64,000 nt of DNA from an uncultured delta proteobacterium (GCA_963752595.1 CAVVYZ010000005.1:160001-224000), one strand, 5' to 3'. Shown: positions 36,997 through 64,000, counted from the first letter of the stretch. Translations and numbers: made by a program. Notes: a model not told the origin generated them from the letters alone.

Positions 36997-38676
36997 ATGG
37001 ATATGTCGAATCCGACAAAGAATTATCAGAAAGATGCAGCCGAAGACCTCCCGAATGATGACAAAATACCCTCGAAGATCCTCGTCGTAGACGACAGCCG
37101 GGTTGTCCGCACCTACCTGCAGTCGCACCTGCAGAAAGAGGGGTATGAGGTTATCGCTGCAAAGGATGGGAAAGAAGCCCTTTCCTTACTTTCCGACAAT
37201 ATCGGCATCGTACTGCTCGACCTGTGGATGCCCGAAATGGACGGCATGGCATGCCTACGCCATATCCGGGAAAACTTCCCCGATATCCCCACCATCATGA
37301 TCACGGTGAGTCATGAGATCTCGAACGCCGTAGAAGCAATGAAGTACGGGGCATTCGATTACGTCACGAAGCCTTTCAACCCCAACGAACTCCTCGCCCT
37401 CGTCCAGCAGGCCCTGAAAACCAGAATCCAGGCGCAGCGTTTGCGCAAGGTCGAGGCTGAGCTTGCCAAGGCCCGCGAGCATGAGATCTCGATTGCTTCG
37501 CGCATCCAGCAGACGCTGCTCCTCGGAGGTGCTCCCAAAAGCCTCAAGGGGGTGCGCATAGGCGATCTCACCATTGCATCCAAAAGGATCGACGGCGACT
37601 TTTATGACTTCTATATGGTCGGGGATACATGCTTCGATGTCATCGTGGGTGACGTCATGGGCAAGGGTATTCCGGCGGCTCTCCTGGGAGCTGCCGCAAA
37701 GCAGCATTTCATGGGTGTGCTCTACCGCCTTACCCGCATCCCGGAAGGGGCCGGCATGCCCACTCCTGAAGAGATCGTACAGTCGGTCCATGCGGAGATG
37801 ATCGGGCAGATGAAGGACCTGGAGACCTTCTTCACCCTCTGCTATGCCCGCTTCGACTTGGTCAAAAATCTGATCAGTTATGTAGACTGCGGGCACATGA
37901 GGACCATCCACTACCACTTCGAGACAAATTCCTGCACCCTGCTCCAGGGTGTAAACATGCCGCTCGGTTTCCCCGGGCAGGATCATTTCAAACAGATCCT
38001 GATCCCTTTTTCCAACGGCGACCTCTTTTTCTTCTATTCCGATGGATTGACCGAGGCAAAAAATCCTAAACACGAATTCTACGGCGAGCAGCGCCTCGTG
38101 GACCTTGTCAGACGGCACTCATTCCTTGAGCCGCAGGAACTCTGCAAGACCGCCTGGAAGGAAATCACCGCATTTTCCCAGTGCGATACCTTTTCCGATG
38201 ATTTCACCTGCGTTGCCGTCAAGATCGAGGTCCCTGAGCCGACGGAACGCTATGATCAGGAATGGAAGCTGGAAGTTCCCAGCGAGCTGGGAGAGCTCGG
38301 AAGGATCAGGGCCTTTATTCAGGATATGTGCAAGAGCATGGGAACGAACGTGGTGGACGATGAAAGGATAAAGATGATCCAGATCGTCGCCACCGAGATC
38401 ATGACGAATATTATCAAGCACGCCTATCAGGGAAGACAGGGTGAAAGCGCCCTCATAGAGGCAAAGACCTCACGCGACGAGATCGTGCTGTATTTCTACG
38501 ACCACGGGATCGAGTTCGATTTCTCGTCAGCGCCCAAGCCTGTATTCGACGGATCAAAGGATGACGGATTCGGTCTCCACATCATTACACACACAGCCGA
38601 CTATGTGCGATACTCCCGTGATGAAACCGGGAGGAATTGCGCCTGCGTGACATTCTTCCTTCAAAGGAGGGGATAA
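36997..38676 (+). CDS. REC-PP2C (SpoIIE) phosphatase-RsbW-like Ser kinase fusion
   Basis: REC (VDDS, LLDLWMPEMDG, KPF); PP2C (GDFYD, GDVMGKG, SDGL.E, DDFT); HATPase (EIMTNIIKHAY, DHG..FD, GFGL). Confidence 0.92.
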   Translation: MDMSNPTKNYQKDAAEDLPNDDKIPSKILVVDDSRVVRTYLQSHLQKEGYEVIAAKDGKEALSLLSDNIGIVLLDLWMPEMDGMACLRHIRENFPDIPTIMITVSHEISNAVEAMKYGAFDYVTKPFNPNELLALVQQALKTRIQAQRLRKVEAELAKAREHEISIASRIQQTLLLGGAPKSLKGVRIGDLTIASKRIDGDFYDFYMVGDTCFDVIVGDVMGKGIPAALLGAAAKQHFMGVLYRLTRIPEGAGMPTPEEIVQSVHAEMIGQMKDLETFFTLCYARFDLVKNLISYVDCGHMRTIHYHFETNSCTLLQGVNMPLGFPGQDHFKQILIPFSNGDLFFFYSDGLTEAKNPKHEFYGEQRLVDLVRRHSFLEPQELCKTAWKEITAFSQCDTFSDDFTCVAVKIEVPEPTERYDQEWKLEVPSELGELGRIRAFIQDMCKSMGTNVVDDERIKMIQIVATEIMTNIIKHAYQGRQGESALIEAKTSRDEIVLYFYDHGIEFDFSSAPKPVFDGSKDDGFGLHIITHTADYVRYSRDETGRNCACVTFFLQRRG

Positions 38677-38678
38677 GT

Positions 38679-39023
38679 ATGAAATTCACCGTAGAAAACC
38701 TTGACGGAATCACGATCATCTCATCCCTGCCCAAGGCTCTCGATGCAAGCAATGCCATGGATTTCAAGGCAGATATAGGCCGCATCCTCGAGGAAAGCTC
38801 GCGGGTGATATTCGACATGAGCGATTTGAAATTCATCGACTCGGCCGGGTGCGGCGCGCTCATAACCTCACTGAGGCGTGTCAAAGGCTCAGGCGGCATC
38901 CTGAAGCTCTATGACGTTCAGAAGCAGGTACGTTCCGTATTCGAGCTGGTGAGAATGCATAAGGTCATTGATATCTTCAATACGCGGCAGGAGGCCCTGA
39001 ATTCTTTTTCACAGGACCGGTGA
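38679..39023 (+). CDS. STAS-domain anti-sigma factor antagonist
   Basis: LDASNA, FDMSDLKFIDSAG with phosphorylatable Ser, VRSVFEL; GGAGG RBS. Confidence 0.92.
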   Translation: MKFTVENLDGITIISSLPKALDASNAMDFKADIGRILEESSRVIFDMSDLKFIDSAGCGALITSLRRVKGSGGILKLYDVQKQVRSVFELVRMHKVIDIFNTRQEALNSFSQDR

Positions 39024-39131
39024 GGATCTTTTTATCCGGAAACCACTGACCTGCGGGCCTGTACCTGATTCCTCCAATTGGAAGTCTTTTAAGATACCCA
39101 TCGTAGAAATGCTTCGGAAAAACCATACGCC

Positions 39132-39881
39132 ATGAACCCGAACTCCAAGGATTCAGAACGCCCCCTCGATCTACTCGAAGAGCTCTACGAGCGGTACGGC
39201 AAAGACCAGGCGCTGAGTTCCTTCCCGCAGCGGTTCCGTCTCTGGCGGAAAAAGACCGCCTGGATAGCTGCAACCGGCGGGGCCAAACTCCTGAAACGCA
39301 GCGCCGATATAACAGCCTCGGTCTGGCTCTTTGTCATGCTTTCTCCACTTTTCGCCATCGTGTCGGCCGCCATCAAACTCACCGATGGCGGGCCGGTTCT
39401 CTATTGGCAGACACGGGTAGGGAAATGGGGGCAGGAATTCAGGTTTCCCAAATTCAGGTCCATGCGGGTAAACGCTGACTCCGAGAGGGAAACCCTCCTG
39501 AAACAAAGCGATCACAAGGAAAGCATCACGTTTAAAATGAAAAACGACCCCCGGATAACGCTCGTGGGCCGGATCATCAGGAGAACCAGTATCGATGAGC
39601 TGCCCCAGCTCTGGAACGTCATAAAGGGCGAGATGTCCCTCGTCGGCCCACGGCCCCCCATTCCGGAAGAAGTCGACAAGTATACGCTGAAAGATCGCAG
39701 AAGGCTGGATATAATCCCAGGGCTCACCTGTATTTGGCAGGTCAGCGGCCGCGGCGATGTCCCGTTCCCCAAGCAGCTGGAATACGATATACAGTACATC
39801 GAGAGCCATAGCCTTATGCTCGACCTCAAGCTTCTGTTAAAAACGATCTCTGCAGTCCTCACCGGCAGAGGAGCTTATTAG
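39132..39881 (+). CDS. Priming polyprenyl-phosphate phosphoglycosyltransferase (bacterial sugar transferase)
   Basis: [48 protein letters not shown]. Confidence 0.95.
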
Positions 39882-39883
39882 AG

Positions 39884-41452
39884 ATGAGCACCATCCTCAT
39901 AGCAACCGGAGAGACAGGCTGTATGAAGGCACTCGGAGAAACGAGACCGGTACCCATGCTGCCCCTGATCGACCGCCCGTTCATTCAGCACGTAGTGGAA
40001 TTCCTGGCAGGACAGGGAAGAAAGGATTTGGATATCATCCTCTCTCATCTTCCCCAGCAGATCGAAACCCTGCTCGGAGACGGCAGCAGGTGGGGCTGCA
40101 CATTCCGGTACCACCTCGTAAGGAACCTTTCGCAAGTCAGCAGGACCGTAAGAACAATCATGGACGAGAAAGATGAGCCCTGCCTCCTGGTCGATGCAAC
40201 GGCCATCCCCCAGATCGAACTCAATCAGACGGACAGGAACGACATCGGCAAAGGACCGGTTTTTTACTGTCTTGAGAGTGAGAAAAGCAGGATCTGCGAC
40301 GCTGCCTGCCCCTGGACAGGATGGGCCTGGTTACCGCAGTATGCGATACGGGTCTTTCCCGTGCTGGACAAATGGGAAGACCTGTACCACTGGGCTCATG
40401 TCCGGTTTCGCAAGAGATGCAGCACTATAAAGACACAGACCGTGCTTCGTATGGACACTTATTCCCATATGCTCGCAGCCCACAGGCAGGTCCTTGATAA
40501 GCAGTTTACCGGCCTGATGGTCACCGGCACCGAGGTGGAGGAAGGCATCTGGCTATCCAGAAATGTAGAGCTCCATCCGTACGCTCGCATCGTCAAGCCT
40601 GTCCACATCGGGCAGGACTGCCATATCGGCAAGGGAGTTCAGATCGGGCCTTATGCCGTCATCGGCAGGAACTGTGTCCTGGACGAACGCTCCACCATAT
40701 CCGATGCGGTGATCTTTCCGAACACGTATGTAGGCGAAGCCCTGGAGCTCAAAGATGTGATCGCGGACAAGAGCCGGCTCATCAATGAGCGCTACTCATC
40801 CGAAGTGACCATCACCGATGAGTTCATCCTCAGCAACATCAGGGAGAATGAGGTGAGGAAATGGCTTTCGGGTTTATTTTCGCGTGCATTCGCGGTCATC
40901 CTCCTGATGCTCACCTTTCCCTTGCTCCTTTCCACTTTCCTGAACCTGAAGAGAAAAAGACAGGGACAGGTCCTGTATAAAAGCCGGGTAGTAAAGCTCC
41001 CTTCCGAATATGACCAGGCCTTATGGAAGACATATTCCCTCCTCAGTTTCACCCCTTTCAGGGAAAAAACCGGTATGGAACCGGAAAGGAGCGACTTCCC
41101 TGCGGACCCTCCGACACGAGGCGATATCCGCAGCCACTTCCTCCTTACGGTACTTCCCGGCCTCATCAACGTGGCGCGGGGAGATCTCCAGGTAATCGGC
41201 GTGAACCCCCGCACAAAAGACGAACTGTCGAGTCTTCACAAAGATTGGGCAATGGCCTACCTCAAGTCCAAGGCAGGGCTGATCACCGAGAGCTTCATCA
41301 ATTTCGGATTCCATGCATCCGCCGATGAGGTTTACTCGGCCGAAATGATCTATTGTGCGTCATTCACGAGAAAGAAAGATCTGGTGATCCTGGGCAGGTA
41401 CTTCGGCCGTCTGCTCCGAGAACTGATCCTGCAGGGTTCGAAAAAGAAATGA
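39884..41452 (+). CDS. Nucleotidyltransferase-like + left-handed beta-helix + degenerate sugar-transferase fusion
   Basis: RP.PMLP..DRPF..H..E.L..G..WG; hexapeptide region PVHIG..C.IG..IGP..VIG; TM then LPGLINV..GDL..IG..P..K.GL. Confidence 0.75.
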   Translation: MSTILIATGETGCMKALGETRPVPMLPLIDRPFIQHVVEFLAGQGRKDLDIILSHLPQQIETLLGDGSRWGCTFRYHLVRNLSQVSRTVRTIMDEKDEPCLLVDATAIPQIELNQTDRNDIGKGPVFYCLESEKSRICDAACPWTGWAWLPQYAIRVFPVLDKWEDLYHWAHVRFRKRCSTIKTQTVLRMDTYSHMLAAHRQVLDKQFTGLMVTGTEVEEGIWLSRNVELHPYARIVKPVHIGQDCHIGKGVQIGPYAVIGRNCVLDERSTISDAVIFPNTYVGEALELKDVIADKSRLINERYSSEVTITDEFILSNIRENEVRKWLSGLFSRAFAVILLMLTFPLLLSTFLNLKRKRQGQVLYKSRVVKLPSEYDQALWKTYSLLSFTPFREKTGMEPERSDFPADPPTRGDIRSHFLLTVLPGLINVARGDLQVIGVNPRTKDELSSLHKDWAMAYLKSKAGLITESFINFGFHASADEVYSAEMIYCASFTRKKDLVILGRYFGRLLRELILQGSKKK

Positions 41453-42441
41453 TCTATTATCTGTGTCCGGACAACAATGAGCCCATCGGGGGCGTGAAAA
41501 AGATATATACCCATGTGGACATCCTGAACAGTAACGGCTTCCCGGCATACGTGCTCCACCGGAAGAAAAACTTCCGCTGTGACTGGTTCCGGAATACTAC
41601 ACAGATTGCCTACCTCAAGAAATCCACAATCTCCGAGGAGGACTTTATCGTTATCCCCGAGTTCTATAATCTGGCATATATGAATCCCAAACGGCGTGAT
41701 GACGCATCAAAAGGCTTTCTTGAGGTATTCGCCTCTGCAGCGCAAAAGGTAATTTTCAACCAGAACACCTACTACACCTTTTATGGGGATTCATTCGACA
41801 CAGATGACTTGAGGAATATCCATATCGACGACCAGACCGTTGCAGCCATGGTCGTATCGGAAGACGGAGCACTGTTTCTCCGCCGTGCATTCCCCGGGTT
41901 AACCGTCATGAGGGTCCATAATTCCATCGATACCTCAATCTTTTCCCATGAGGGAAGGAAGAAGAACCAGATCTGCTTCATGCCGAGGAAAAACAGAGAC
42001 CATGCTATTAATGTTATAAATATACTAAAATACAGAGGGGTGCTTGACGGGTTCCCCCTGGTGCCCATCGAGGGCAAGACAGAGAAACAGACCTCGGAGA
42101 TCATGAAGGAATCCCTCATATTCTTAAGCTTCGGGTACCCTGAAGGATTCTCCCTTCCTCCTGCCGAAGCCATGGCATGTGGATGCATCGTCATCGGATA
42201 CCACGGCATGGGCGGCAAAGAATATTTTAACCCTGACTTCTGTTATCCCATAGAAACAGGCAATATCCTTGATTTTGCCGGAACCGTCGAAGATGTGATT
42301 AAAACATCCTGGACCAGCCCGGCGCTCCTCCAGGAAAAAGCCTTGAAGGGATCGTCTTTTATCCGGGAAAATTACTCCCCAGCCATTGAGCAAAAGGATG
42401 TTCTCTCATGCTGGGAGACGTTACATGCAGGTATGTTCTGA
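41449..42441 (+). CDS. Glycosyltransferase (GT-B, GT4-like)
   Basis: P.GGVK..Y.HV, EGFSLPPAEAMACG..VIG; ATGA overlap with the upstream stop. Confidence 0.85.
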   Translation: MIYYLCPDNNEPIGGVKKIYTHVDILNSNGFPAYVLHRKKNFRCDWFRNTTQIAYLKKSTISEEDFIVIPEFYNLAYMNPKRRDDASKGFLEVFASAAQKVIFNQNTYYTFYGDSFDTDDLRNIHIDDQTVAAMVVSEDGALFLRRAFPGLTVMRVHNSIDTSIFSHEGRKKNQICFMPRKNRDHAINVINILKYRGVLDGFPLVPIEGKTEKQTSEIMKESLIFLSFGYPEGFSLPPAEAMACGCIVIGYHGMGGKEYFNPDFCYPIETGNILDFAGTVEDVIKTSWTSPALLQEKALKGSSFIRENYSPAIEQKDVLSCWETLHAGMF

Positions 42442-42492
42442 GGACCCGCGTCAGTTTCTCTGGGGATAGCGCTTTTTCAAGAAAAAAATCTT

Positions 42493-44772
42493 ATGAAAAA
42501 CAATCTGGAACCATCTGAGAGGAAACCGGGCAAGCCTTTCGATCCCTTCGGGACAGTGCAGAGGCACTGGATGGAGATCGCCGTGTTCGGCAGTATCCTT
42601 CTCATTCTGATGATTCCTTTCGCTTATTTACTCAGCAAGCCGTTCTATACGGTTCAGGGAAGGATCCTCGTTGCACCGGCAGTCAGCACATTCATTGTCC
42701 AGAACGAAGAAACGCCCATTACCGGCTACTACAATGCCTATGTACGGACGCATGTGAGCAGGCTGAAACAGCGGGATGTGTTCGAGAAGGCGCTGTCCAA
42801 GCTCGAGCCCGAGCTGAAGTCTCGGTATATACCCAAGGATACCTCCCTGTCCTTTGCTGCGACCCTGCTGATGAATAAGATGGAGATCGACCACCTCTCC
42901 GGCACCCACCTCATTACGCTCACCATGACCGGGGGCATCCCGGATGGATTGGCAGAGGTCATCAATAACGTTGCCGATGTCTATATGGAAGAGATACAGA
43001 AAGAGATGGAAACAAAGGATTACCGGCGTCTCATGTATCTCCAGCACGAGAAGGAAAAGATCGAGGAAGATATCACTTCCCAGAACCGGCTACTCCAGGA
43101 GATTGCGAAAGAAGCAGGGACGTTCTCGTTCGAGAGCGAGAACAACATTTATAATACCCAGTTCGAGATTCTGCAGGAGGAGTATGTCAGGGCCTACAGC
43201 GACCGGGTGTTGAAAGAAAACGCACTCAGCTCGCTCATGAGCCTGGGGAACTATCGTAAAAAAGCTTCCGTCAAGCCGCTGGTTGAAGAGTTCGTGAACC
43301 AGTCCTCCTCATCTTCCCAGTTAGGCTCTTCCACATATCAGGAGCTGATCAAGCTCAACTCAGCCCGTGCAGAATATCCACCCGCCCATCCCGGCCGCGC
43401 AAAGATAGAATCAAAGATTCATGCGCTTGAAGAAAACCTCAAACAATTTGAGAACGACGAGAGGAAGAAAGCGGAAAATATCGTTGTGGAAAAGCGCAAG
43501 CTGGACCTTGATGAAAGAATCATGAACGCCCGCGCCGACTACGAAGCAGCCAAGAGGGCAGAGGAAGATATCCAGTCAAAGCGCGACGAGATCCTGGCCA
43601 AAAGGTCCGGCATTTCACAGAAGCTTATCAGTGGGAAGCAGATCGGTGAAAAGGTCGAGCACTTAAGGAGCCTCCTGAACCGGATCGAGGATCGGATCAG
43701 CGAGCTGAACCTCGAGTCCAAGGCTCCCGGCAGGCTCCAGATAGAAAGTTATGCCAAGAGGCCCCAGATGCCTTCGGGGAGCAATCTGAAGAAGATCCTG
43801 ATGGTGTTCTTCCTCTTCTCCTACGGCAGCATCCTGATGATCTGTGTGATCTACGACATCTTCGACAAGCGGGTCCGTGACCGAAAGAACGTGTTCCATG
43901 CATTGGGGTCGCACCCCTCGTGGCCCATCTCGAATTACAAGTTCACCGGCACAAACGGCATCCCCTTCTCCCGTGTCACTATGGATGATTCATCCAATGT
44001 GGTTGCAAAAGCGATCCAGAGCCTTGCGGTACGCATCGACAAGGAGAGGAAGGAGCATGATGCACGGTGCGTGGTGTTTACCGGCATCGACAGGAAATGC
44101 GGCACTACGGAGATCCTCGTCAATACGGCATATGCCATTACCAAGCTCTGCAAGAATATCATTGTCATCGATGCCCACTTTGACCAGCCGAATATCACGA
44201 GCCTCCTGAATGCCGCCGCGGATAAGCCGGGCATCATAGACTTCCTCCTAGGGAGGGTATCCATCAAGGAATGCATCGTGCACGATGACGAAAGAGGCCT
44301 CGACTTCATCCTTCCGGGCAGAAAGCCTACCTCCGAAGACCTGGGACTGCTCGATCTTTCCATCATCCCCCACATGATCCGGGAGCTCAAGCAGCGGTAT
44401 GCCCTGATATTGATCGACAGCACCCCGGTATTGACGAGCGATATCACCGAATACTTCATCCTGCAGTCGGATGCCACCATTGCGGTCATCCAGGGAGATA
44501 AAACCAAATATGATCACCTGTACCTGGCTGGGGACATCCTCTTCCGCCTGAAAGTGCCCGCCATCGGCGCCGTTCTGAACTGGGGCGCGCCGAGAAACCT
44601 GAACAAGGGGCAAATCCTGGTGTCGAAGATCCTTTGGCCCTGCGAGAAGCTCCTTGCGAAAATTACCGGGACAGACCTGAAGTATGTTCGATACTTCATC
44701 GAGCCCCCCGAACCCCCGGCGGCCCCAGATGCACCCCCGGAAGAAGAGTCCTCGCTGAACGACACCGGATAG
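42493..44772 (+). CDS. Polysaccharide co-polymerase, Wzc/GumC-like, with degenerate BY-kinase domain
   Basis: Two TMs around a long coiled-coil periplasmic domain; C-terminal P-loop-like domain with IVIDA and LILIDSTP, GAVLN. Confidence 0.85.
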   Translation: MKNNLEPSERKPGKPFDPFGTVQRHWMEIAVFGSILLILMIPFAYLLSKPFYTVQGRILVAPAVSTFIVQNEETPITGYYNAYVRTHVSRLKQRDVFEKALSKLEPELKSRYIPKDTSLSFAATLLMNKMEIDHLSGTHLITLTMTGGIPDGLAEVINNVADVYMEEIQKEMETKDYRRLMYLQHEKEKIEEDITSQNRLLQEIAKEAGTFSFESENNIYNTQFEILQEEYVRAYSDRVLKENALSSLMSLGNYRKKASVKPLVEEFVNQSSSSSQLGSSTYQELIKLNSARAEYPPAHPGRAKIESKIHALEENLKQFENDERKKAENIVVEKRKLDLDERIMNARADYEAAKRAEEDIQSKRDEILAKRSGISQKLISGKQIGEKVEHLRSLLNRIEDRISELNLESKAPGRLQIESYAKRPQMPSGSNLKKILMVFFLFSYGSILMICVIYDIFDKRVRDRKNVFHALGSHPSWPISNYKFTGTNGIPFSRVTMDDSSNVVAKAIQSLAVRIDKERKEHDARCVVFTGIDRKCGTTEILVNTAYAITKLCKNIIVIDAHFDQPNITSLLNAAADKPGIIDFLLGRVSIKECIVHDDERGLDFILPGRKPTSEDLGLLDLSIIPHMIRELKQRYALILIDSTPVLTSDITEYFILQSDATIAVIQGDKTKYDHLYLAGDILFRLKVPAIGAVLNWGAPRNLNKGQILVSKILWPCEKLLAKITGTDLKYVRYFIEPPEPPAAPDAPPEEESSLNDTG

Positions 44773-44835
44773 GCCTTCAACCCGGTACCGGCAATTTATG
44801 AACAGATCCGTACGCTCCTTATGTGACACTTAACG

Positions 44836-49197: not shown

Positions 49198-49308
49198 CCG
49201 GCTCTCCATCACCGGCGCTTATCGCCTCTCCATCAGCAGGCGTAAGACCGACCCGGAGAAAGTATACGTGAAAGCATCCTTCCTCACAAGGCATATCATG
49301 AGCGGATC

Positions 49309-50814: not shown

Positions 50815-50827
50815 AGGACAATATCGC

Positions 50828-54191: not shown

Positions 54192-54229
54192 GAAGGCCCA
54201 AGCGGAATTATATGCAAGCATGCAAGAAA

Positions 54230-55204: not shown

Positions 55205-55785
55205 TGGGACCCGTAACGAGGCTGCGTCATCTCATCAACAGAGCTCATCTCATGCTCGACAAATCATTTTATGCCGAATACCTGAGGAGGCAGGGTGTAC
55301 AGATCGGTCAAAACTCATCCATCCTCTATCCGTCATACATCGACGGCCGACTGCCGTATCTCGTTGAGATCGGAAACAATGTGATCATATCCCTTAACGT
55401 GACGATCCTCACCCACGATGCAACGACCGCCTATGCCGGAGACCTCATCAAGGTGGGTAAGGTCATCATTCGTGACAGGAGCTTTATCGGTACGAAATCG
55501 ACCATCCTGTGCAATGTGACGATCGGTCCCAACTCGATCGTGGGCGCCGGCTCGGTGGTTACCCATGATGTCCCGCCCGACACCGTCTGTGCGGGAAATC
55601 CGGCCAGGGTCGTGGGCTCCATCGAGGATTTCAAGAAAAACCATGCAGCAAAGGGCACAGAACGGCCCCTCTTCCTTGCAGGGAACTACATGCATCCTTA
55701 TATACCTGGAAAGATGAGGGAAGGACTGCGCCGGGCCCTGGCCGAGGATTTCGGATATTTCTGCTCAAGGTTACCCCGCAAATGA
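55204..55785 (+). CDS. Hexapeptide (LbH) O-acyltransferase
   Basis: IGNNV.I...V.ILTHD, FIG..S.IL..V.IG.NSIVGAGSVV..AGNPARV. Confidence 0.88.
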   Translation: MGPVTRLRHLINRAHLMLDKSFYAEYLRRQGVQIGQNSSILYPSYIDGRLPYLVEIGNNVIISLNVTILTHDATTAYAGDLIKVGKVIIRDRSFIGTKSTILCNVTIGPNSIVGAGSVVTHDVPPDTVCAGNPARVVGSIEDFKKNHAAKGTERPLFLAGNYMHPYIPGKMREGLRRALAEDFGYFCSRLPRK

Positions 55786-55842
55786 CCTTACGTTGTGAGC
55801 CCGGGGCATAACAGGAATATTACTGATGAGGATGCGGTACCC

Positions 55843-56946
55843 ATGGAAAAGGATCTTCAACCCATAAGCGTCGTGATCATCGGGATCAATGTGGAGAAAT
55901 ACATCGGCGGATGTATTTCGTCGGTCCCCACGCCGATTATCCGAAAGCAAGCCTTGAGATCATCTACGTGGATGGCGGCTCGAACGATCGAAGCATTGAG
56001 ATCGCGATGGAATTTCCCGGGGTCCGGATCATCGAACTTCAGGACCCTCATCCCACCCCCGGCAAGGGCCGCAATGCAGGGATTGCCCAGGCAGACCATG
56101 GTATTGTCCAGTTCCTTGATGCCGATACTATCCTCCATCCCGGATGGCTCCGCACGGCACTCCCGTATCTGAACGGTACTGTGGCGGCGGTGGCAGGGCG
56201 GATACAGGAGAAATACCCGGGGAAGAATCTCTACCATGTTGATCGGAAACATGGATTGGGGCATTTCCGCCGGCAAACAGGGCCATATATTTACAGAAGG
56301 CCCGAGCGCCACCTTCGGCGGCATCGTGCTGGCACGAAAAGACGCGATCATAGGTGTGAATGGATATGACGAGAGCCTCATAGCAGGAGAAGACCCTGAT
56401 TTGAGCTACCGGGTAAGGAGGCAGGGGTGGACCATCTACCGGATCACTGCGGACATGGTCGTACATGACCTCAACATGAACTCGTTCCGGCACTACTGCA
56501 GGAGGGCCTTCCGGAGCGGTCACGCCTATGCGGAGATCGGGTTGAGGTACAGGAAGGGAAAAGAGAAGTTTTTTCTGAGGCAGCTCCTGAGGATCTGTCT
56601 CGGCGCTACGATTCCGGCAGCCGTCATATTCTTCGGAATCCTGATGAAACGATTGGGGTTTGCATTATTTCTTGCAACAGCGATTGCCTGCAGGCCTTTC
56701 CGCAAGATCAATCGTTTCATAGCGCCGCCGCTGGGTATGCGGGCTGCCATCCTCTACTGCGCACACTTATCGTTTGTTGTGTATCCTCAGTTTTTCGGCG
56801 CCATGAGGTATCTGGCAACCTGCTTCACCGGCATGCCTTTGCAGAATAAAGGCTATGTCCCGCATACCCATCCGGTTGACCGGGATGATACACAAAAAGC
56901 GGCCGCTGAATGTCCCTTGAGCGGAAGAACGATAAGAACAGCATGA
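55843..56946 (+). CDS. Glycosyltransferase family 2 with C-terminal TM helices (two apparent frameshifts near 55927 and 56235)
   Basis: SVVIIG.N (frame 1), YVDGGS.D..GRNAG..QFLDAD (frame 2), GG..GYDE.LIAGEDPDL..R..R.GHAYAE (frame 3). Confidence 0.85.
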
Positions 56947-58823
56947 GCGGCGCCTATATCGTCCAGAAAGAAAACCGAGCGGACCTGCACGAGCTCGCCC
57001 GCCTGCTCTCTTCAGCCCTTTCCTATGGCGGAGAATATGTAAACCATTACTGTAGCCATGGGCAAACCGTCATGGGGCTTGTGGGCAATGATAAGTTCAG
57101 AAAAGGGGTCATGCCGGTCTATATTCCCTCCGAAAGGCTCTGGGTTGTGCTCATGGGAGAGCTCTACGAAAGTGACGGTTTAACCTCCTTCCGGGAGCAG
57201 AATCCTGACATCAGTGATGATGCCGAGGTATTTGCCCGCCTGTTCCGGAGAGGTGATCTGATAAAGGCACTCCCCGACCTCAATGGTGCCTTCTTTGTAA
57301 TGCTCTTTGATCCCCTCGATGATACCGTTATCGCTGCAAACGACAGATACGGCCTCTATCCCATGTATTGGTCACGGAGTGCAGACGGGTTCTGCCTGGC
57401 GAGCAGGGTCATCTGCCCGGTCATATCAGGTGTTGCGGATGGAGAGTGGGATCTCGCGGGGGTAGCCCAGTTCCTTGCCCTGGATGACTTTCTCGGCGAA
57501 ACGACCCTGGTCTCAGGGGTAAGCACATTCCCCCAGGCATCGGTACTGATAAAAAAGGACGGCTCTCTCTCCTGGCAGAAATACTGGAGTTACCGGTATA
57601 TTCCCGATGATCATCTTTTGCCTGAGAAAGAACTGGCTGAAGAACTGGGACAACGTTTCCTCAAGGCCGTGAAGGCTCAGACCAGAAGCGCCAGGCGCAT
57701 CGGTGTGACTTTGAGCGGAGGCCTCGATTCACGGGTTATCGTCGCTGCAGCTTCACATGCAGGAATACCGGTGCGGACTTTTACCTGGGGCAAACCCGGC
57801 TCGTACGATAGAATATTCGCCGGCCAGGTTTCACGTCTCTACAGGACAGAGCACCACGACTGCGATTATGCATGTCACAACCTCCAGACAAGATTCTTTG
57901 ACGGCATCCGGATAACCGAGGGACTCATCAATTACTTTGACTGCCACATGCTCTTTCACCTCCACATCCTCAAAGAGCATGCCGACCTCATCCTCAACGG
58001 ATATGCCGGAGACCTCGTCCTGGGAGGTTCATATCTGAGAAGCGCCTGGATGTCTCCATACCCGAATGGAGAACTTGCCGGGAAGCTCTTTGCCTGGAGA
58101 AATACCCTTGTCCCGGAAAGTTCCCTAGCGGAGGTGATACCCGATTTTCCCCGACTCGAAAGACAATGCCGTCCGTCAATGCTGTATCAGGAAATGATTT
58201 CCCGGCTGGGGAGCGGTCTCCCCCCGGCAGACGCTGCAGATACGTTCTTCCTTGAAAACCGCGTGCGAAGATCCACAGCCATGGGCACCGTGCTGATGAG
58301 GGAAACAGTCGAATCAGCCTCCTGTTTTTTCGATTATCCACTTCTCGATCTCATAACCGCTATCCCTTATACGCTCCGCCATGAGCACCGGATGTACCGG
58401 GAGATGCTGAAATATTCATTCCCCGAATCCTTGAGGGTGCGATGGCAGCGGACCCTGCTGCCTGCATATACACCTTCTGCGATGGATCTGCCTGTCAAGG
58501 CATTCCTCAAGGGTTGCAGGATCCTTGAAAACAACTTCCACTGGCCTCACATCTCTTCCCGCCAGGCACCGGTTGATTTCTCCATCCTGGTCCGCGGAAT
58601 CTTGAGACCCTGGATGGACAGCATTATCTACGATACCTATCCGTTAAGCGATCAGATCCTGAACCCCGATTTCTGCGAGCAGATATGGAACAGTCACCTC
58701 GCAGGAGAAAATCATATCCGCCTGCTCGGTGTCATCGCAAGCATCCGGGGATTTTCCTCACACTTAAGGCAGGCTCGCTCTAAAACAACATCCTGCAATG
58801 TATTCCCTGTTGAGATAAGATAA
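56943..58823 (+). CDS. Asparagine synthetase-like (AsnB family) ATP-dependent amide ligase
   Basis: GELY, LNGAF, NDRYG.YP, LSGGLDSR PP-loop, GYAGD; starts MSG instead of MCG; ATGA overlap with the upstream stop. Confidence 0.85.
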   Translation: MSGAYIVQKENRADLHELARLLSSALSYGGEYVNHYCSHGQTVMGLVGNDKFRKGVMPVYIPSERLWVVLMGELYESDGLTSFREQNPDISDDAEVFARLFRRGDLIKALPDLNGAFFVMLFDPLDDTVIAANDRYGLYPMYWSRSADGFCLASRVICPVISGVADGEWDLAGVAQFLALDDFLGETTLVSGVSTFPQASVLIKKDGSLSWQKYWSYRYIPDDHLLPEKELAEELGQRFLKAVKAQTRSARRIGVTLSGGLDSRVIVAAASHAGIPVRTFTWGKPGSYDRIFAGQVSRLYRTEHHDCDYACHNLQTRFFDGIRITEGLINYFDCHMLFHLHILKEHADLILNGYAGDLVLGGSYLRSAWMSPYPNGELAGKLFAWRNTLVPESSLAEVIPDFPRLERQCRPSMLYQEMISRLGSGLPPADAADTFFLENRVRRSTAMGTVLMRETVESASCFFDYPLLDLITAIPYTLRHEHRMYREMLKYSFPESLRVRWQRTLLPAYTPSAMDLPVKAFLKGCRILENNFHWPHISSRQAPVDFSILVRGILRPWMDSIIYDTYPLSDQILNPDFCEQIWNSHLAGENHIRLLGVIASIRGFSSHLRQARSKTTSCNVFPVEIR

Positions 58824-58944
58824 TGGGAAACTCAAGCATATCCAAGATACGGCCGATGAAATACAATGGAGTATCAAACCCCATCGAGAGAGTATCCGAA
58901 GGCAGTGACGCTCTTGGCCGGTGAACTGAGGGAGGCCTGAGAAC

Positions 58945-59880
58945 ATGACGATCAGCGATATCCAGAAAAAAAATTGTACGCATTTCATAAGAAAAAATCT
59001 TTGCCCTTACAGCAGACCTATCTCCGGAATGATCCGTTCGGCATCCATAGCAATCCTCACCTTGCTCGTCTCCCTATCATCTGCGGCCGCCGCACAGTAC
59101 TCACCCATCCAGTCCCCTGCACGACCTTTCGGGCTGAATATCGTGGATCAGGTACAGGTGGCAGGCTCGGATCAGCGTTCCGCTGATTTCCAGAGCAATT
59201 ACCTGTCTCTCATGAGCCAGTGGGGAAACATGGATCTCACCTCTCCCTCGTTTACCCAGCACACCTCTACCATCGCCCTGGACCCTTCAAAGATCAGCCT
59301 GGCCACTCAGTACGATTCCCGTGTGTATTTTATTGGCGACAATACCTGGAAGCATAGTGCACTAGGATTCAACACTGCAGGAGGAGGGATCACAGGCGGC
59401 AACCCTTTGCTCATTTTTCCGGATGCATCGGAATCAACCACTACCGCAGCGGTAAGACCATCAAAGGTCAAAGTCCCTGTGCGGACTACAACCGATCCTC
59501 TCCTGCCTGGCGACTTCGTCAGTCTAGGCACCCTTTCCGGCGGGACGCAGCTTGATTTCTTCCTGATCTCCGAGAGAACAAAAAAGATCACCGATGTCTT
59601 CTCTACCGAAGCTTCGATCAATCCCGACGGACTCAGCCATGCTCTGGTCTTTGCAAGGCCTGACAGCCCGTACCTGTTCATCGGGTTTGAAGACCTTTAT
59701 GGGGTAAGCAACGGGGGGAGCAACAGCGTCCTCTTTGCCCTGGATGTCGGTGCTGGGAATATCCATGCTTTGACCAATATGCCCGAACCTTCGACAATGC
59801 TTGTCCTGGGCTCATTCCTAACTCTCGTGATATGCCGTAAACGTACCCTTGATCTTAAACGCAAATCTCAAATGACTTGA
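58945..59880 (+). CDS. PEP-CTERM sorting-signal protein with DUF4114-like domain
   Basis: Signal peptide ending AAAA, RVYFIG..LGF, LDFFLI, NPDG..H, FIGFEDL; C-terminal MPEPSTMLVLGSFLTLVICRKR (PEP + TM + basic cluster). Confidence 0.88.
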   Translation: MTISDIQKKNCTHFIRKNLCPYSRPISGMIRSASIAILTLLVSLSSAAAAQYSPIQSPARPFGLNIVDQVQVAGSDQRSADFQSNYLSLMSQWGNMDLTSPSFTQHTSTIALDPSKISLATQYDSRVYFIGDNTWKHSALGFNTAGGGITGGNPLLIFPDASESTTTAAVRPSKVKVPVRTTTDPLLPGDFVSLGTLSGGTQLDFFLISERTKKITDVFSTEASINPDGLSHALVFARPDSPYLFIGFEDLYGVSNGGSNSVLFALDVGAGNIHALTNMPEPSTMLVLGSFLTLVICRKRTLDLKRKSQMT

Positions 59881-61853
59881 TGCGGTTATCCTCAAAACAG
59901 GCGGTGTTGCTCGGCCTGGGAGTGCTCATCCTGGGCATCGCCATTGTTGCCGGATTTTTCAGCTGGCGCTCCTACGTGATAAGCTCGCAGGAAAAGCGCT
60001 CTCTTGCTGCTGCAGAGCGACTCATAGAGCAGGCCCGGCCGAACGAGGCCCTTGCGATCATCAAAACCATGAAGGCCTCATCTCTGCCCGAGAATTCCGG
60101 AAAGTGGCTCTCTTTAGAGATCCGGACGCTTGAACAATCACGGAATATCCACAGATTGCTCTATCTTTACAGTCAGTATCCGCTGGAAGTCCTTACGCAC
60201 GAGAAGGCTTCCCTCCTCGTTGCCCGGGCCCTGCTCGAAACCAAGAAGATGGATCTCTTTACCCAGTTGAGGGATTCATGGCGCCCGCGTGAAAAGAGCC
60301 CTGAATTTTGGTTTGCCCTGGATGTAGACGCTCTCCTTACCCAGAGAAGGCAGGATGAGGCCCTTGCACTCCTCACCTCCCGATCCTTCAAAGGTGAGGC
60401 GGATTGCGGAAGGCTGGTTCGCCTCGCGCTCTTCAAGGCAGGAAAAAACCTGGACGAAGCATGGAACCTCCTGGATGAAGCCTACCGGGCCGATCCGCGT
60501 AATCCGGATGTCCGGTCATTCCGGGCTCAAGTCTTGGAATATGAGGGCAAAATGCCTCCTGCCCGCTTGGAGTATGTTGCCGCCCTTCTCTGCGATCCCA
60601 AAAATCCCTTGCTCCGGGATCAGCTTGCAGACTTCTACCGCAGACAGGGCAATTATATCCTGGCGTTGCAGACATGGATTGAAAGCTTTCCCTCCCCGGT
60701 CCCTGACTTTTTCTGGGTCAAGGCATTATTCTGGGCCAAGGTAACCCATCCTGTGGAAATAAATTTCGCGAAATCCTACGCCCCTGCCGGCGAAATGGCA
60801 CCCATGATCAAGATAATGCAGAATCTTAAGAAAGAGACCTTCTGGGATGATAACCTTCTGGGAGAGGAAGTCTCTCTTAATAAATTGGTTGAAAGCCGCC
60901 AGGAAATATTCTGGCTTCAGTTGATCCAGGCCCTGCAGGAAGGATCGGAGGCCAGGGCAATGGAACTGCTGAAATCCTCTCACTTTAAAAATTCCTCATT
61001 CCATCCTGAACTGGAGCGCACCCTCCAGATCGTCCTCGTCTACCGCAGGTGGGGCGTATTTGTCGAACCAGAGGAACAGACATTTAAACCGTATACATCA
61101 GGAAGACTTGAACACCAGCTTTTTGAGCAGATACATCTGCTTACTCACAAGAAGGACAGTTCCTATAAGAATGTCACCGTGCCGGACGATCTCGATGCCC
61201 TCCTGAAGAGCAAAGAAGCCTTCAGTTCGATGTTCCTCGCTGCCGGATGGTTAGAAGCTGCGATCGGGCTTCATAAGCTCCCGGTCATTCCCGATGGTTT
61301 CCCGGAATGGGTAGCTTATGGATTTACCCAGGCATTGAGATACAACAGGGGAAACAAAGCTGCCCTCGAATTTGCACGCCATCAGAAAATCACTCCTGCA
61401 CTCGATATGCTAACCTCGGAGATACTGCTCGCTGAAAACCGCGCCGACAAGGCTCTGCCAAGATTGCAATTACTTGCACAGAACGATACCGACATAGGGT
61501 TCCGGGCTGCCTGGCTGATGAGCATGGCATCTTTGAACAAAGGCGATCTCAATGAATCAAGGCGGATCGTACAGGATCACAAATCCCTCTCCGGCAGCAT
61601 CGCAGGCAGGCAGATCCTTGCAAGAATCGCCCTGAACGAAGGCAATGTCCCGGAGGCGGACCATTTATACGGAACGCTTGCCGGTGAGTCCCTTGAGGCC
61701 AGATCATATCTTGCCCGCAGGGCCTTCGAACGCAAGGACTGGAAAACGGCCAAAAGATTCACCCAAGAGCTCCTCAACTATTTCCCTGACATGATGGAAT
61801 TACGGGACAACATGCAAAAGATCGCACGGGAAGAGAAGCATGGCCGCCCGTGA
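59880..61853 (+). CDS. Membrane-anchored TPR-like alpha-helical protein
   Basis: N-terminal TM, TPR-like repeats (EA..LL..AY..DP.N..VR..RA; A...Y..AL..DP.N..LR..LA.FY); TGATG coupling. Confidence 0.75.
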   Translation: MRLSSKQAVLLGLGVLILGIAIVAGFFSWRSYVISSQEKRSLAAAERLIEQARPNEALAIIKTMKASSLPENSGKWLSLEIRTLEQSRNIHRLLYLYSQYPLEVLTHEKASLLVARALLETKKMDLFTQLRDSWRPREKSPEFWFALDVDALLTQRRQDEALALLTSRSFKGEADCGRLVRLALFKAGKNLDEAWNLLDEAYRADPRNPDVRSFRAQVLEYEGKMPPARLEYVAALLCDPKNPLLRDQLADFYRRQGNYILALQTWIESFPSPVPDFFWVKALFWAKVTHPVEINFAKSYAPAGEMAPMIKIMQNLKKETFWDDNLLGEEVSLNKLVESRQEIFWLQLIQALQEGSEARAMELLKSSHFKNSSFHPELERTLQIVLVYRRWGVFVEPEEQTFKPYTSGRLEHQLFEQIHLLTHKKDSSYKNVTVPDDLDALLKSKEAFSSMFLAAGWLEAAIGLHKLPVIPDGFPEWVAYGFTQALRYNRGNKAALEFARHQKITPALDMLTSEILLAENRADKALPRLQLLAQNDTDIGFRAAWLMSMASLNKGDLNESRRIVQDHKSLSGSIAGRQILARIALNEGNVPEADHLYGTLAGESLEARSYLARRAFERKDWKTAKRFTQELLNYFPDMMELRDNMQKIAREEKHGRP

Positions 61854-62661
61854 TATCTCTTTTCTTTCGCTCCTTTTCTTTTTGGCGATCTATATCTGGT
61901 TGAGGGATCTCACAGGGATAACTTCTCTGGAAAACACCCTTCCCATACTCCTGTCCCTGCCCCTGTTCGTCTATATGGGGAGCCCCTGGAAACTGCAGGA
62001 AAACCCTCAGCCGATCTCTTACAGCAACCTCGTCATCGGTACGGCAGGGTTTGTCCTGGGCATCCTGATGGATGTTCCACTCCTTCCGGCTGCAAGCTGG
62101 ACGTATCTTTTATGGACATGGCTCTGCCCACGCGTGAATCCACACGATCTACCCTCCGTACGAAGGCTTATGATCCTACCTCTTTTCGCCTTCCCATGGC
62201 TGAATCTCGAAGGGAATTACATTGGATGGTATTTCAGGCTCTCCGGCGCCTGGGTAACTGCGAAGACCTTCTCAGTCATGGGGTTCAATGTGCTGCACGA
62301 GGGCACACAGCTCATAGTCCAGGGGTTGCCTGTGGGAATCGGCGAGGCCTGTTCGGGTATCAATGTCCTCCAATCCATGCTTATAGCCGGTTCTGCCCTG
62401 GCGTATCTCTATGTCGGCAGGTTGAAGATTTTCTGGTTGAATCTCGTGGCACTGGTAATTATTGCGTGGCTGGCAAATACCTTACGGATCGTTATCCTCT
62501 GCATCACGGCGCTGACCATGGGCCGGGAATTCGCGCTGGGAATATTCCATACCTGGGGCGGGTGTCTGGTTCTCTTCCTGATGCTCTGCCTTACCTGGGC
62601 CATTCTCTCCCTGCAAGTTGCATATATCCGAAAGCCTGCCGCCTCATCAGCCTGTCCATGA
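61840..62661 (+). CDS. Exosortase/archaeosortase family transpeptidase
   Basis: Multi-TM; catalytic Cys in EACSGI, Arg in ANTLRI, His in FHTWGG. Confidence 0.92.
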   Translation: MAARDISFLSLLFFLAIYIWLRDLTGITSLENTLPILLSLPLFVYMGSPWKLQENPQPISYSNLVIGTAGFVLGILMDVPLLPAASWTYLLWTWLCPRVNPHDLPSVRRLMILPLFAFPWLNLEGNYIGWYFRLSGAWVTAKTFSVMGFNVLHEGTQLIVQGLPVGIGEACSGINVLQSMLIAGSALAYLYVGRLKIFWLNLVALVIIAWLANTLRIVILCITALTMGREFALGIFHTWGGCLVLFLMLCLTWAILSLQVAYIRKPAASSACP

Positions 62662-63131
62662 AAAGACCCCAACTCATATCGATTCTTATCTGCATCTATT
62701 GCATCCTGAATTCCTTAAATCTTGCAGAGACATGGATGTCAGCGGCAAGAGAAATTGCCGGTCCCATGGCTCTCGGCTTATGGAGCTCACCGGTGATCTT
62801 TTTCTGGTATATCCAGCAGAAAACACCACGGCCGACCAAAGAGAGGCCTCTCCTCTTAGGCCTTGCCCTGTTTTTCTCTTTTACCGGCATGCTGGGATCC
62901 CTGCGAGTCCTGGGCCATATCGGGCTTGCATGCGCCTTTGGCGCACTGCTCCCCAATTTGCCCGTGCATCTTTTCTGGCTTGCTGCTTCTATCTCCTGGA
63001 TGCCTGCACTTGACTGGTTTGGCGGAAGATTCTTCCCCGAGTATGTAACCGTTGCCCGTATTCTCCTGGCAACCATCCCATCCTGGTATTTTGTCCGATC
63101 GGTCCAACGCGTATCCAGGAATCAATCATGA
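62658..63131 (+). CDS. Small multi-TM hypothetical protein (157 aa) in the exosortase cassette
   Basis: ATGA overlaps at both ends; MKRPQLISILICIYC.. with 4-5 hydrophobic segments (C-terminal part of ORF 62112..63131). Confidence 0.7.
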   Translation: MKRPQLISILICIYCILNSLNLAETWMSAAREIAGPMALGLWSSPVIFFWYIQQKTPRPTKERPLLLGLALFFSFTGMLGSLRVLGHIGLACAFGALLPNLPVHLFWLAASISWMPALDWFGGRFFPEYVTVARILLATIPSWYFVRSVQRVSRNQS

Positions 63132-63715
63132 CTCCGCTCGCCGATAAACTTCTCTGGACAGCGCTTATCATGGCGCTCGCTCTCGGAATCCTCTTTGACG
63201 CAAGCTCTCTTCCCGAAGACATGAGCAGGGTAAACCACATCCCCGCCCAAGGCCTCGGGTTTACCAGTGTTGACATACCCTTGAGCTCAAGCGAGCTTTC
63301 CCTGTACTCAAAGGCAGAGGTAGTCAAAAGGTATTATCAGCTGGGCAAGGACCGGTTCATGCTTATCGCCATAGACGGCGCGAAGAACAGGCATGCAGTG
63401 CATGATCCGATATATTGCTTCCAAGGCGCCGGATGGCAGATCGCTGAGAAAATTGCAGTGCCGGTCGAAAGTGGAGAAGCCCTCCTGCTTCTTCTTGAAA
63501 AGAACGGTTCGTATCGCGAGGTGGCGTACTGGTTTACGGACGGTAAAAACCGCCACACCTCTGTGGTGCGATACTGGATTCAAGCAACCTTGCGGAGGAT
63601 AACCATGGGCCGTTCCGGCAAAGAGCCCATCCTGATCATGCTCCAATCCGTTGATGAACACCCGGCGAATTTCAGGAAGATATTCGATCAGTTCGGAGTA
63701 TTATTTGTACTATAA
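63128..63715 (+). CDS. Exosortase-associated EpsI-like protein
   Basis: N-terminal TM, R.Y, NRHAVHDP.YCF.G.GW, V.YWF motifs. Confidence 0.85.
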   Translation: MTPLADKLLWTALIMALALGILFDASSLPEDMSRVNHIPAQGLGFTSVDIPLSSSELSLYSKAEVVKRYYQLGKDRFMLIAIDGAKNRHAVHDPIYCFQGAGWQIAEKIAVPVESGEALLLLLEKNGSYREVAYWFTDGKNRHTSVVRYWIQATLRRITMGRSGKEPILIMLQSVDEHPANFRKIFDQFGVLFVL

Positions 63716-63784
63716 CGTACTCATGTGCTTGATCACACATCCGAATCACCACCAAGACACTCTTTCACCCAAGGAGCCTTACCC

Positions 63785-64000
63785 ATGAGACGCAACCCTG
63801 TGGCCATCCTCGGTATACCCATCGACTGTTTTACCATGGATGAGACCATTCAGTACATCTTCCACCTTATGGAATGCTATGCCTCCGACAAAAAGTCCCG
63901 GCTTGTCTGTACGGCAAATACCGATTTCATCGTGAACACGTTGAGCTGGGATCTCAAGAAAACAAGCCACCCCGAACTCCTTGACATCCTCAGGAAAGCT
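63785..64000 (+). CDS. WecB/TagA/CpsF family glycosyltransferase, partial (runs off the right edge)
   Basis: AAGGAG RBS; MRRNPVAILGIPIDCFTMDET..LVCTANTDF..ELLDILRKA. Confidence 0.8.
   Translation, partial: MRRNPVAILGIPIDCFTMDETIQYIFHLMECYASDKKSRLVCTANTDFIVNTLSWDLKKTSHPELLDILRKA

Follow-up and report, generated by a model that had tools for sequence, protein, structure and literature searches.

The subject of this report is a polysaccharide locus in a 64,000-nucleotide stretch of DNA from an uncultured deltaproteobacterium (GCA_963752595.1, CAVVYZ010000005.1:160001-224000; the window, in which positions are counted from the first letter). At its 5' end a REC-PP2C-Ser kinase and a free STAS protein, which together form a partner switch, are encoded next to a small priming phosphoglycosyl transferase (PGT) and a protein, here called psNT, that joins a pseudo-nucleotidyltransferase, an LbH part and a pseudo-PGT domain. 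The individual parts of the locus have precedents, and by analogy with these it appears to work like a syp- or eps-type pathway.

In SypE of Vibrio fischeri the domain order is kinase-REC-PP2C, whereas the window enzyme is ordered REC-PP2C-kinase. Otherwise the syp system (SypE/SypA) is alike in having a dual Ser kinase/phosphatase response regulator, and a STAS protein with a conserved Ser, in a polysaccharide locus; the target of SypA is stated as unknown in the parts of these sources used here (PMC4517449, PMC8256260). Unlike syp, the window locus has no SypG/SypF-type regulators or Wza, and it adds psNT, a WecG-STAS-STAS fusion and an exosortase cassette. For Anabaena HenR/Alr3423/All4160 and for Synechocystis XssP a partner switch is described whose target is an enzyme of polysaccharide initiation, no sigma factor being involved; All4160 and XssP are STAS-PGT fusions, and All4160 is under HenR/Alr3423 control (10.64898/2026.04.08.717354). 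In the window, by contrast, STAS occurs free and twice fused to WecG, the PGT is a protein of its own, a single protein combines kinase and phosphatase, and a pseudo-enzyme stands beside the PGT.

Five window genes are best or near-best matched by the EPS_Eps models of the Myxococcus xanthus eps pathway, all below the equivalog cut-offs (EpsZ 248/800, EpsH 250/800, EpsE 198/400, EpsA 183/500 and EpsC 122/150 bits). Other likenesses to that pathway are a BY pseudokinase (PMC12004946), a regulated priming PGT (EpsW on EpsZ; PMC12802240) and a short OPX protein with a beta-barrel (EpsX/EpsY; PMC9601211). In the window, however, the pseudokinase is fused to the co-polymerase, the PGT is of the small type, and the regulator is STAS rather than a single-domain response regulator. 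With the XrtA/PEP-CTERM/PrsKRT systems and the cyanoexosortase CrtB the locus shares a Cys-Arg-His exosortase, an EpsI-like partner, a TPR protein and a putative PEP-CTERM substrate in a polysaccharide locus (PMC12188702), but the window scores only 48/208 bits for XrtA and 29/312 for PrsT, lacks PrsK/PrsR in the locus, has its putative substrate gene adjacent and encodes an extra half-exosortase-like protein. Finally, psNT shares its fold with nucleotidyltransferase-LbH proteins of the CugP-like, GMPPA and GlgD types, from which it differs in adding a membrane-associated pseudo-PGT domain and in travelling with PGT and WecG. GMPPA and GlgD are non-catalytic regulatory subunits. The lack of Wza and the degenerate Wzc are less of a surprise than a first-pass annotation of the sequence had made them, and the pseudo-enzyme hub is more of one. 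Among the papers covered, mostly freely readable ones and largely at the level of listings, we found no description of the gene set, psNT, WecG-STAS fusions or the exosortase subfamily.

The partner switch and psNT

In our reading, to which we give an even chance, the locus encodes a surface polysaccharide pathway of the Wzx/Wzy type, and both enzymes that initiate it are likely controlled post-translationally by the STAS switch, which is predicted to dock on psNT. That the switch acts on initiation stands slightly better than even; that psNT is the direct STAS receptor is a tentative proposal, somewhat more doubtful than probable. The partner switch itself, already proposed in the first-pass annotation, is tied to polysaccharide synthesis and has intact motifs, namely those of a dual kinase/phosphatase with a receiver and the STAS Ser.

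The psNT model (predicted local distance difference test, pLDDT, 81) has a nucleotidyltransferase-LbH fold followed by a PGT-like domain in which the re-entrant Pro is retained; its best fold match is 8x7s tlr0611 (E 1.9e-14), and GMPPA/GMPPB were matched too. By motif scan, the Asp-Glu dyad occurs in 0/266 psNT homologs and GxG[TSE]R likewise in 0/266 (120 homologs plus 146 from a second search, at least nine of them without the N-terminus). The family is probably large and mis-annotated, since its members are named in their sources as 'sugar transferase' or 'NDP-sugar synthase' and yet are without both active sites. The best 150 clusters (50% identity) were nearly all full-length matches, and 1,889 clusters reach E 1e-30, some of which were checked as members; a plasmid search with psNT gave partial nucleotidyltransferase matches only. 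The priming PGT of the window has residues D59..P72, R150, D155-E156, R174 and D231 invariant in 18/18 aligned sequences, with DX12P and the Asp-Glu dyad present.

We also fetched 80 metagenome loci chosen by psNT alone, 44 of which have at least 6 kb of flank. These 44 contained PGT in 38 cases, WecG in 28, STAS/PP2C/Ser kinase in 25, Wzc in 8 and Wza in 3, and TPR or exosortase in none (0/44). Over all 80, the usual gene order was PGT-WecG-psNT or switch-STAS-PGT-psNT; the open reading frames (ORFs) neighbouring psNT keep DE.PQ in 55/60 PGTs and [DN]S.G in 30/30 STAS proteins. As loci picked by psNT are rich in PGT, WecG and switch genes and without TPR or exosortase, the psNT core is a module for initiation, to which the exosortase cassette has either been added or is encoded at a greater distance. 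These counts bear on the earlier suggestion that Ser switching replaces Tyr-based control of chain length, which did not hold up: the conserved neighbours of the switch are the initiation enzymes and not Wzc, and, since the switch coexists with neighbouring Wzc proteins that keep Walker A (in genomes G016 and G044), it is no substitute for Tyr phosphorylation.

WecG provides a further view of the module. Among 73 WecG ORFs, from loci L023-L233, two STAS domains are present in 25, a PGT-like domain without DE.PQ in 35, neither in 13 and both in none. The fusion of a dead PGT-like domain with WecG is encoded between PGT and psNT at L114:8516-9931 and in 33 loci among L154-L233. psNT itself occurs fused to a PP2C-kinase (P0274, a single sequence), to a kinase (P0264, 3 members), to PilZ (P0279, a single sequence) and in the order pseudoPGT-WecG-psNT (P0376); all of these fusions are rare.

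Complex prediction with PGT, psNT and STAS, in which STAS was scored, gave 0.50 (runs 0.50, 0.55 and 0.47, with 88% or more of the contacts shared between runs and a pLDDT of 79 for the partner), while the controls gave at best 0.16, with psNT replaced, and 0.01 and 0.00 with unrelated partners. In calibration the mark was reached by 116/157 solved and 2/215 mismatched pairs, although scores up to 0.60 comprised only 18 solved pairs yet both mismatches, and our job was unlike the calibration in having three chains and alignments of our own making. The prediction gives weak support to the binding of STAS in a PGT-psNT complex and may be taken as a lead that agrees with the fusions.

Two chlamydial loci encode REC-PP2C-kinase and STAS as one protein directly before PGT. 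The position of STAS bears on an alternative in which its direct target is the active PGT, the pair being equivalent to a cyanobacterial All4160/XssP protein split in two, while psNT does no more than sense a metabolite or serve as a scaffold. STAS is indeed directly 5' of PGT in the window locus and in Desulfoluna, and adjoins PGT in Chlorobi; the conserved N-terminal extension of the PGT could dock a regulator, and the Anabaena STAS-PGT fusions are phospho-regulated (10.64898/2026.04.08.717354). Yet in two Verrucomicrobia loci STAS follows psNT and not PGT, and no ORF in the 80 psNT loci holds both STAS and PGT, which are separate genes at the window locus too, whereas switch enzymes and WecG do occur fused to psNT. 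We consider this alternative unlikely.

Still less probable, in our judgment, is a classical partner switch, in which the kinase domain would serve as anti-sigma factor, STAS would antagonize it, and the switch would act on transcription of the locus through a sigma factor encoded elsewhere. Transcriptional control does not readily account for the STAS-WecG and switch enzyme-psNT fusions; the 70 neighbour ORFs scanned included no sigma factor (picked from 119 unassigned), and HenR is described as without transcript-level action in Anabaena (10.64898/2026.04.08.717354). This is nevertheless the textbook role of such proteins, the window STAS exceeds the anti-sigma antagonist cut-off (TIGR00377, 58 versus 53 bits), and a review has such systems acting on gene expression through unknown targets (PMC8256260). 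A sigma-54 promoter motif was not found in the locus, and the window held 2 matches against 3.5 expected by chance.

Two observations concern genes upstream of the module in relatives. At L117:13828-17268 (G044) PGT-psNT-STAS is directly preceded by genes for an H-NOX protein and for a hybrid histidine kinase, which suggests a nitric oxide or oxygen input to the switch there. A uridine-kinase/PRK-family gene is directly upstream of PGT in different lineages (L114:7120-7758, L115:12682-13314 and L116:628-1251).

The exosortase cassette and the spread of the system

We used the TPR protein as a marker to search a species collection; 91 stretches were confirmed and the best 80 kept, and 50 of these 80 genomes, those with longer contigs, were examined further. 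The loci span deltaproteobacteria including Desulfoluna, Chlorobi, Verrucomicrobia, environmental Chlamydiae, Lentisphaerae, Armatimonadota and Nitrospirales. Where there was room, TPR is followed by the exosortase in 62/74 loci, the 157-aa protein in 57/70 and the EpsI-like protein in 57/69, and preceded by the PEP family in 43/72. psNT was found in 43/50 genomes with a broader profile (five by the LbH part only) and in 18/50 with a strict one; in the 43 it lies within 30 kb of TPR in 22, far off on the same contig in 3, and on another contig in 18. As psNT and TPR co-occur across genomes of several phyla, the left (switch/psNT) and right (TPR/exosortase) modules are one system, as the first-pass annotation had supposed. 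Within the window's own class the system is patchy (8/122 genomes, 3 genera). In environmental Chlamydiae and other genomes (L040, L052, L076, L039, L072 and L079) we noted a compact cassette in the order switch-PGT-psNT-TPR-exosortase, in which TPR is often present twice; these genomes have up to 15 PEP-CTERM matches.

The exosortase triad (C171, R216, H237) is invariant in 52/52 aligned sequences, and the window protein falls below every named NCBIfam exosortase cut-off; from its sequence it appears to represent an unnamed subfamily with its own TPR and half-exosortase partners. For the half-exosortase-like 157-aa protein, the Atlas gave a lead of 0.82. The PEP-CTERM protein, 20% Ser+Thr, ends in an MPEPST tail with E254-P255 invariant in 35/35; its Pfam PEP-CTERM score is 13.7 bits (cut-off 20.7), it lies outside the 7 TIGR02595 matches of the genome, and a PDB search with the PEP family profile gave nothing significant. 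Six genomes (five Chlamydiae and one other) keep the exosortase without the window's PEP family and have 2-15 other PEP-CTERM matches, whereas six others (five Chlamydiae and one Nitrospirales genome) keep TPR with neither exosortase nor PEP-CTERM matches. These distributions indicate that the exosortase likely processes PEP-CTERM proteins and that TPR likely has a role apart from it. PEP-CTERM proteins that keep polysaccharide attached to cells have been described (PMC12188702). One protein, P0219, is a single 918-aa TPR-exosortase fusion.

Co-polymerase, polymerase and export

In the Wzc-like protein Walker A reads GIDRKCGTT, with Lys-Ser/Thr lost, Walker A' (DxDxR) reads DAHFD, and the last 30 residues hold 2 Tyr and no Tyr cluster; Walker B is kept. 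From these residues the co-polymerase is a pseudokinase, unable to act as a Tyr kinase, in keeping with the first-pass annotation, which spoke of several pseudo-enzymes. Walker A/A' is degenerate in 10/10 deltaproteobacterial and Chlorobi Wzc sequences, while GEGK[ST] or GEGRS is kept in two chlamydial Wzc proteins and in Verrucomicrobia fusions; the Desulfoluna copies have lost Walker A and retain 4 Tyr near the end. From one membrane helix to the other the periplasmic span measures 387-388 aa, whether or not a wza gene lies nearby. Co-polymerase partners that are dead as kinases have a precedent in EcpK (PMC12004946). The Verrucomicrobia fusions (L055:2507-5587, L093:4752-7811, L063:2993-6196 and others; at least 8 loci) are of ~1,020-1,070 aa and join co-polymerase, BY-kinase (with Walker A) and a C-terminal OPX part (Poly_export + SLBB), followed by a second Wza gene.

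The Wzy-like gene had been named as such in the first-pass annotation. It has no Pfam or NCBIfam match, but its 8 hydrophobic segments and its weak resemblance to a Wzy_C-bearing protein encoded at the syntenic position in the Desulfoluna family (20% identity over 424 aa, E 8e-5) lead us to infer a Wzy polymerase; the counterparts in Chlorobi loci are 41-46% identical. The next gene, on the minus strand and of 545 aa, is kept at the same place in relatives. Its Atlas neighbours are named cellulose-binding protein (0.97), its model (pLDDT 39) is too poor to trust, its top weak matches are GH51/GH79, and a PDB sequence search gave no match. A plus-strand ORF at 47689-48939, which overlaps this conserved gene and has no family match, was rejected as a real gene. 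In L047 (G020, chlamydial, without exosortase) a TPR gene is flanked by WecG-STAS-STAS on one side and, on the other, by a homolog of the hydrolase-like gene that encodes 774 aa.

As had been claimed, Wza, Wzb and PrsK/PrsR are absent from the window, and we found none of the four genes in the locus or directly after it. In the window's family wza is absent from 7/7 loci with a readable psNT-wzc junction (the G159 sequence breaks there), so that its absence is real, local and family-wide. Elsewhere wza stands directly before wzc, in Desulfoluna and Chlorobi, and Wza is found within 30 kb of TPR or psNT in at least 25/50 genomes (at 40 kb, at least 28/50).

These observations bear on the proposal, made with the first-pass annotation, that the polymer is attached to or organized by the PEP-CTERM protein rather than exported through Wza. 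In its fullest form the Wzy-like protein would be a ligase or oligosaccharyltransferase that puts the glycan on the PEP-CTERM protein, and the exosortase cassette would bring the glycosylated protein to the cell surface. The local absence of wza fits, as does the want of an exporter that tracks the locus, and the nearest classified relative of the Wzy-like protein has Wzy_C. That domain is shared with ligases. The Ser+Thr content of the PEP-CTERM protein is also in keeping, and a covalent bond between PEP-CTERM proteins and polysaccharide has been discussed as a possibility (PMC12188702). Wza-free export is weakly supported at best, however: the same system carries Wza in at least half of the 50 genomes, including the Chlorobi loci with closely similar Wzy-like genes, the co-polymerase retains its full periplasmic span and would be left without a polymerase, the PEP family is missing in 14/51 TPR-bearing genomes, and six genomes, as above, dispense with the exosortase cassette though TPR stays. 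We regard glycan transfer to the PEP-CTERM protein as improbable.

The simplest reading, and a fairly probable one, is that export is borrowed: the polymer would use an exporter from another part of the genome, for which the short OPX protein and predicted beta-barrel of the XrtA-type locus are the simplest candidates. Such a pair is a described exporter type (PMC9601211). Short OPX genes with barrel-like, co-polymerase and Tyr-kinase neighbours occur in G000, G131 and G159 and, up to the contig end, in G132; G002 has a similar set, and G001 and G003 have short Wza matches. The window genome (84% complete, 6.8% contamination) has, outside the locus, two Wza genes, three other exosortase loci, one low-molecular-weight phosphatase gene and a fragmented prsK-like gene adjoining a prsR-like gene. 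The orphan wza on contig C26 was rejected as a relocated exporter: it is 27-29% identical to in-locus Wza, and its distribution differs from that of the locus (12/122 genomes, whereas the locus is in 8, and just 4 genomes have both). Near it, L016:6142-7308 (G000:C26) partially matches a model for a TIR-domain anti-phage reverse transcriptase (102 bits, cut-off 600).

Gene content and setting of the locus

The locus comprises 24 genes over ~28 kb (36997-65284), with intergenic gaps of at most 121 bases. Pfam/NCBIfam matches and translations bore out the gene families and order given earlier: switch enzyme, STAS, priming transferase, six further glycosyltransferases (GTs), Wzc-like, Wzx, three LbH acyltransferases, AsnB-like, PEP-CTERM/TPR/exosortase/EpsI-like and WecB/TagA genes. 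The locus was taken to be one nearly continuous plus-strand run; it is real, but the minus-strand gene interrupts the run. Past position 64,000 the WecB/TagA gene continues, as a STAS-STAS fusion of the kind for which the first-pass annotation had advised a check, for 1.3 kb to the end of the locus. A terminator-like hairpin that follows it is no better than chance, and beyond, on the opposite strand and convergent, translations identify rodA-mrdA-mreD-mreC-mreB. The features are collected in Table 1.

Table 1. Genes of the locus, with positions in the window and the evidence for each
Feature	Position	Strand	Evidence
REC-PP2C-Ser kinase, partner-switch enzyme	36997..38676	+	Pfam Response_reg, SpoIIE, HATPase_c_2; receiver Asp, PP2C and HATPase motifs present
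Free STAS protein, phospho-acceptor motif DSAG	38679..39023	+	Pfam STAS; D54, S55, G57, G59 invariant in 18/18 aligned
Small monotopic priming PGT, conserved N-terminal extension	39132..39881	+	Bac_transf; catalytic residues intact
psNT: pseudo-nucleotidyltransferase + LbH + pseudo-PGT, proposed regulatory hub	39884..41452	+	Domains, model, fusions
GT4 glycosyltransferase, accessory, missing from several relatives	41449..42441	+	Family match
Polysaccharide co-polymerase with fused BY pseudokinase (Wzc-like)	42493..44772	+	Membrane helices 29-47, 435-453; no Walker A Lys, no Tyr cluster
GT4, best match Myxococcus-type EpsH, 250 bits (cut-off 800)	44836..46155	+	NCBIfam
Wzy-like polymerase (inferred)	46152..47534	+	8 hydrophobic segments; no family match; weak match to syntenic Wzy_C protein
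Glycoside-hydrolase-like protein, membrane-anchored or secreted, putative clan GH-A	47575..49212	-	Conserved in place; absent from first-pass annotation
Wzx flippase	49309..50814	+	Polysacc_synt_3, 199 bits
LbH acyltransferase 1 (EpsC/CysE-like)	50777..51352	+	Family matches
LbH acyltransferase 2	51450..52037	+	Family matches
GT4, best match EpsE, 198 bits (cut-off 400)	52063..53295	+	NCBIfam
GT2	53292..54191	+	Family match
GT2	54188..55204	+	Family match
LbH acyltransferase 3	55204..55785	+	Family matches
GT2 with two compensating indels	55795..56946	+	Family match; closest relative intact
AsnB-like protein without N-terminal Cys, accessory, in 3/80 related loci	56910..58823	+	Family match, translation
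Secreted protein, variant PEP-CTERM tail (MPEPST, membrane helix, basic cluster), weak DUF4114 match	58945..59880	+	Both Pfam matches below cut-off
Membrane-anchored TPR protein, system marker	59877..61853	+	Family and membrane prediction
Exosortase, unnamed subfamily	61840..62661	+	Exosortase_EpsH 82 bits; C171, R216, H237 invariant
157-aa membrane protein resembling N-terminal non-catalytic exosortase half	62658..63131	+	hhalign probability 76%, E 2.3e-5
EpsI-like (DUF3485) exosortase accessory protein	63128..63715	+	Family match
WecG/TagA-STAS-STAS fusion, start in window, ends 65284	63785..64000 (window part)	+	Both STAS Ser motifs present

The composition of the locus, which was to be compared with that of the core genome, proved typical: its GC content is 53.5% against 53.0% for the genome, and 66% of 131 equal-sized genome windows lie farther from the mean tetranucleotide profile. 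A recent horizontal arrival is thus unsupported by composition, though the locus is patchy in its class; its nearest named relatives are deltaproteobacterial records. The two indels in the third GT2 gene, near 55925 and 56240, are likely assembly errors, since one near-identical contig restores the missing base at ~55925 and another stops matching at ~56240 (depth ~3, single contigs). Fragmented prsK-like and exosortase genes (G000:C9:78399-79648 and C6:5748-6455) likewise point to indel errors in the assembly.

Upstream of the locus we noted a metallo-beta-lactamase-fold gene directly adjoining it (35811-36752), also upstream in G001, G002, G003 and G131 and not in G149/G159; the remains of a split IS5-like transposase gene (34017-35067); and a GT2 fused to a Kdo/WaaP-type sugar kinase domain (31798-33471), which by position and size has an upstream counterpart in G001-G003.

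A model for control of initiation, and its meaning

The sequences show the gene content, the residues lost and retained, the co-occurrence and the fusions, whereas complex formation, the sign of the regulation, the route of export and the part played by the PEP-CTERM protein are inferred. In the mechanism we propose, the small PGT, whose residues were checked, would load the first sugar on the lipid carrier, and WecG would likely add the second; from family knowledge, the six GTs and three acyltransferases would complete the unit, Wzx would flip it and the Wzy-like protein would polymerize it. psNT, held to the membrane by its pseudo-PGT domain, may bring PGT and WecG into one initiation complex, to which WecG would be tethered by its own pseudo-PGT domain or, at the window locus, by its two STAS domains. 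The REC-PP2C-kinase would determine how far the STAS domains, both free and fused to WecG, are phosphorylated; by analogy with SypA and All4160, their unphosphorylated form would be active. The co-polymerase would be an EcpK-like scaffold, apart from the switch. The window's family would have lost its local wza, with the polymer likely leaving through an exporter encoded elsewhere, and the exosortase would likely cleave the adjacent PEP-CTERM protein, which would anchor the polymer to the surface and not export it.

Several observations weigh against this model. Within their flanks, 19 of the 44 psNT loci have no switch gene, and sigma-54 activators beside three Chlorobi loci indicate transcriptional input there. 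Three of the four types of psNT fusion are single metagenomic sequences or of unchecked cluster size, and some may be mis-called read-throughs, there being a Met at the P0264 junction. The support from the complex prediction is weak, and predictions that pass as ours did are wrong oftener than right unless the complex was likely beforehand. As to the later steps, the polymerase is identified by inference; we found no dedicated exporter that tracks the window's locus family; G131 and G132 have one Wza only and G149 only a 737-aa Wza; and the label 'barrel' is a prediction from sequence reading and position, with no NCBIfam match at 1e-25.

Possibly, STAS receptors form a widespread class of which psNT is the first known example, and in which a doubly dead enzyme builds a PGT-psNT-WecG initiation complex, reads STAS phosphorylation or the inputs of a fused PilZ or kinase domain, and gates polysaccharide at the lipid-carrier step. 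WecG would then be recruited through its STAS pair, and hence phosphorylation-dependently, and the window's family may run without a Wza of its own. We put this proposal forward with more doubt than confidence.

How the free STAS proteins SypA and HmpV switch on polysaccharide is given as open in the parts of the literature used here (PMC4517449, PMC8256260). psNT would be a concrete candidate for the type of receptor concerned, as a small soluble STAS protein, a pseudo-enzyme and a priming transferase are here encoded side by side, and homologous loci are present in the cultured and harmless Chlorobium phaeovibrioides, Prosthecochloris vibrioformis and Desulfoluna. If the proposal is true, the relay would control polysaccharide without acting on transcription, at the first two sugar-adding steps, and would provide a testable answer.

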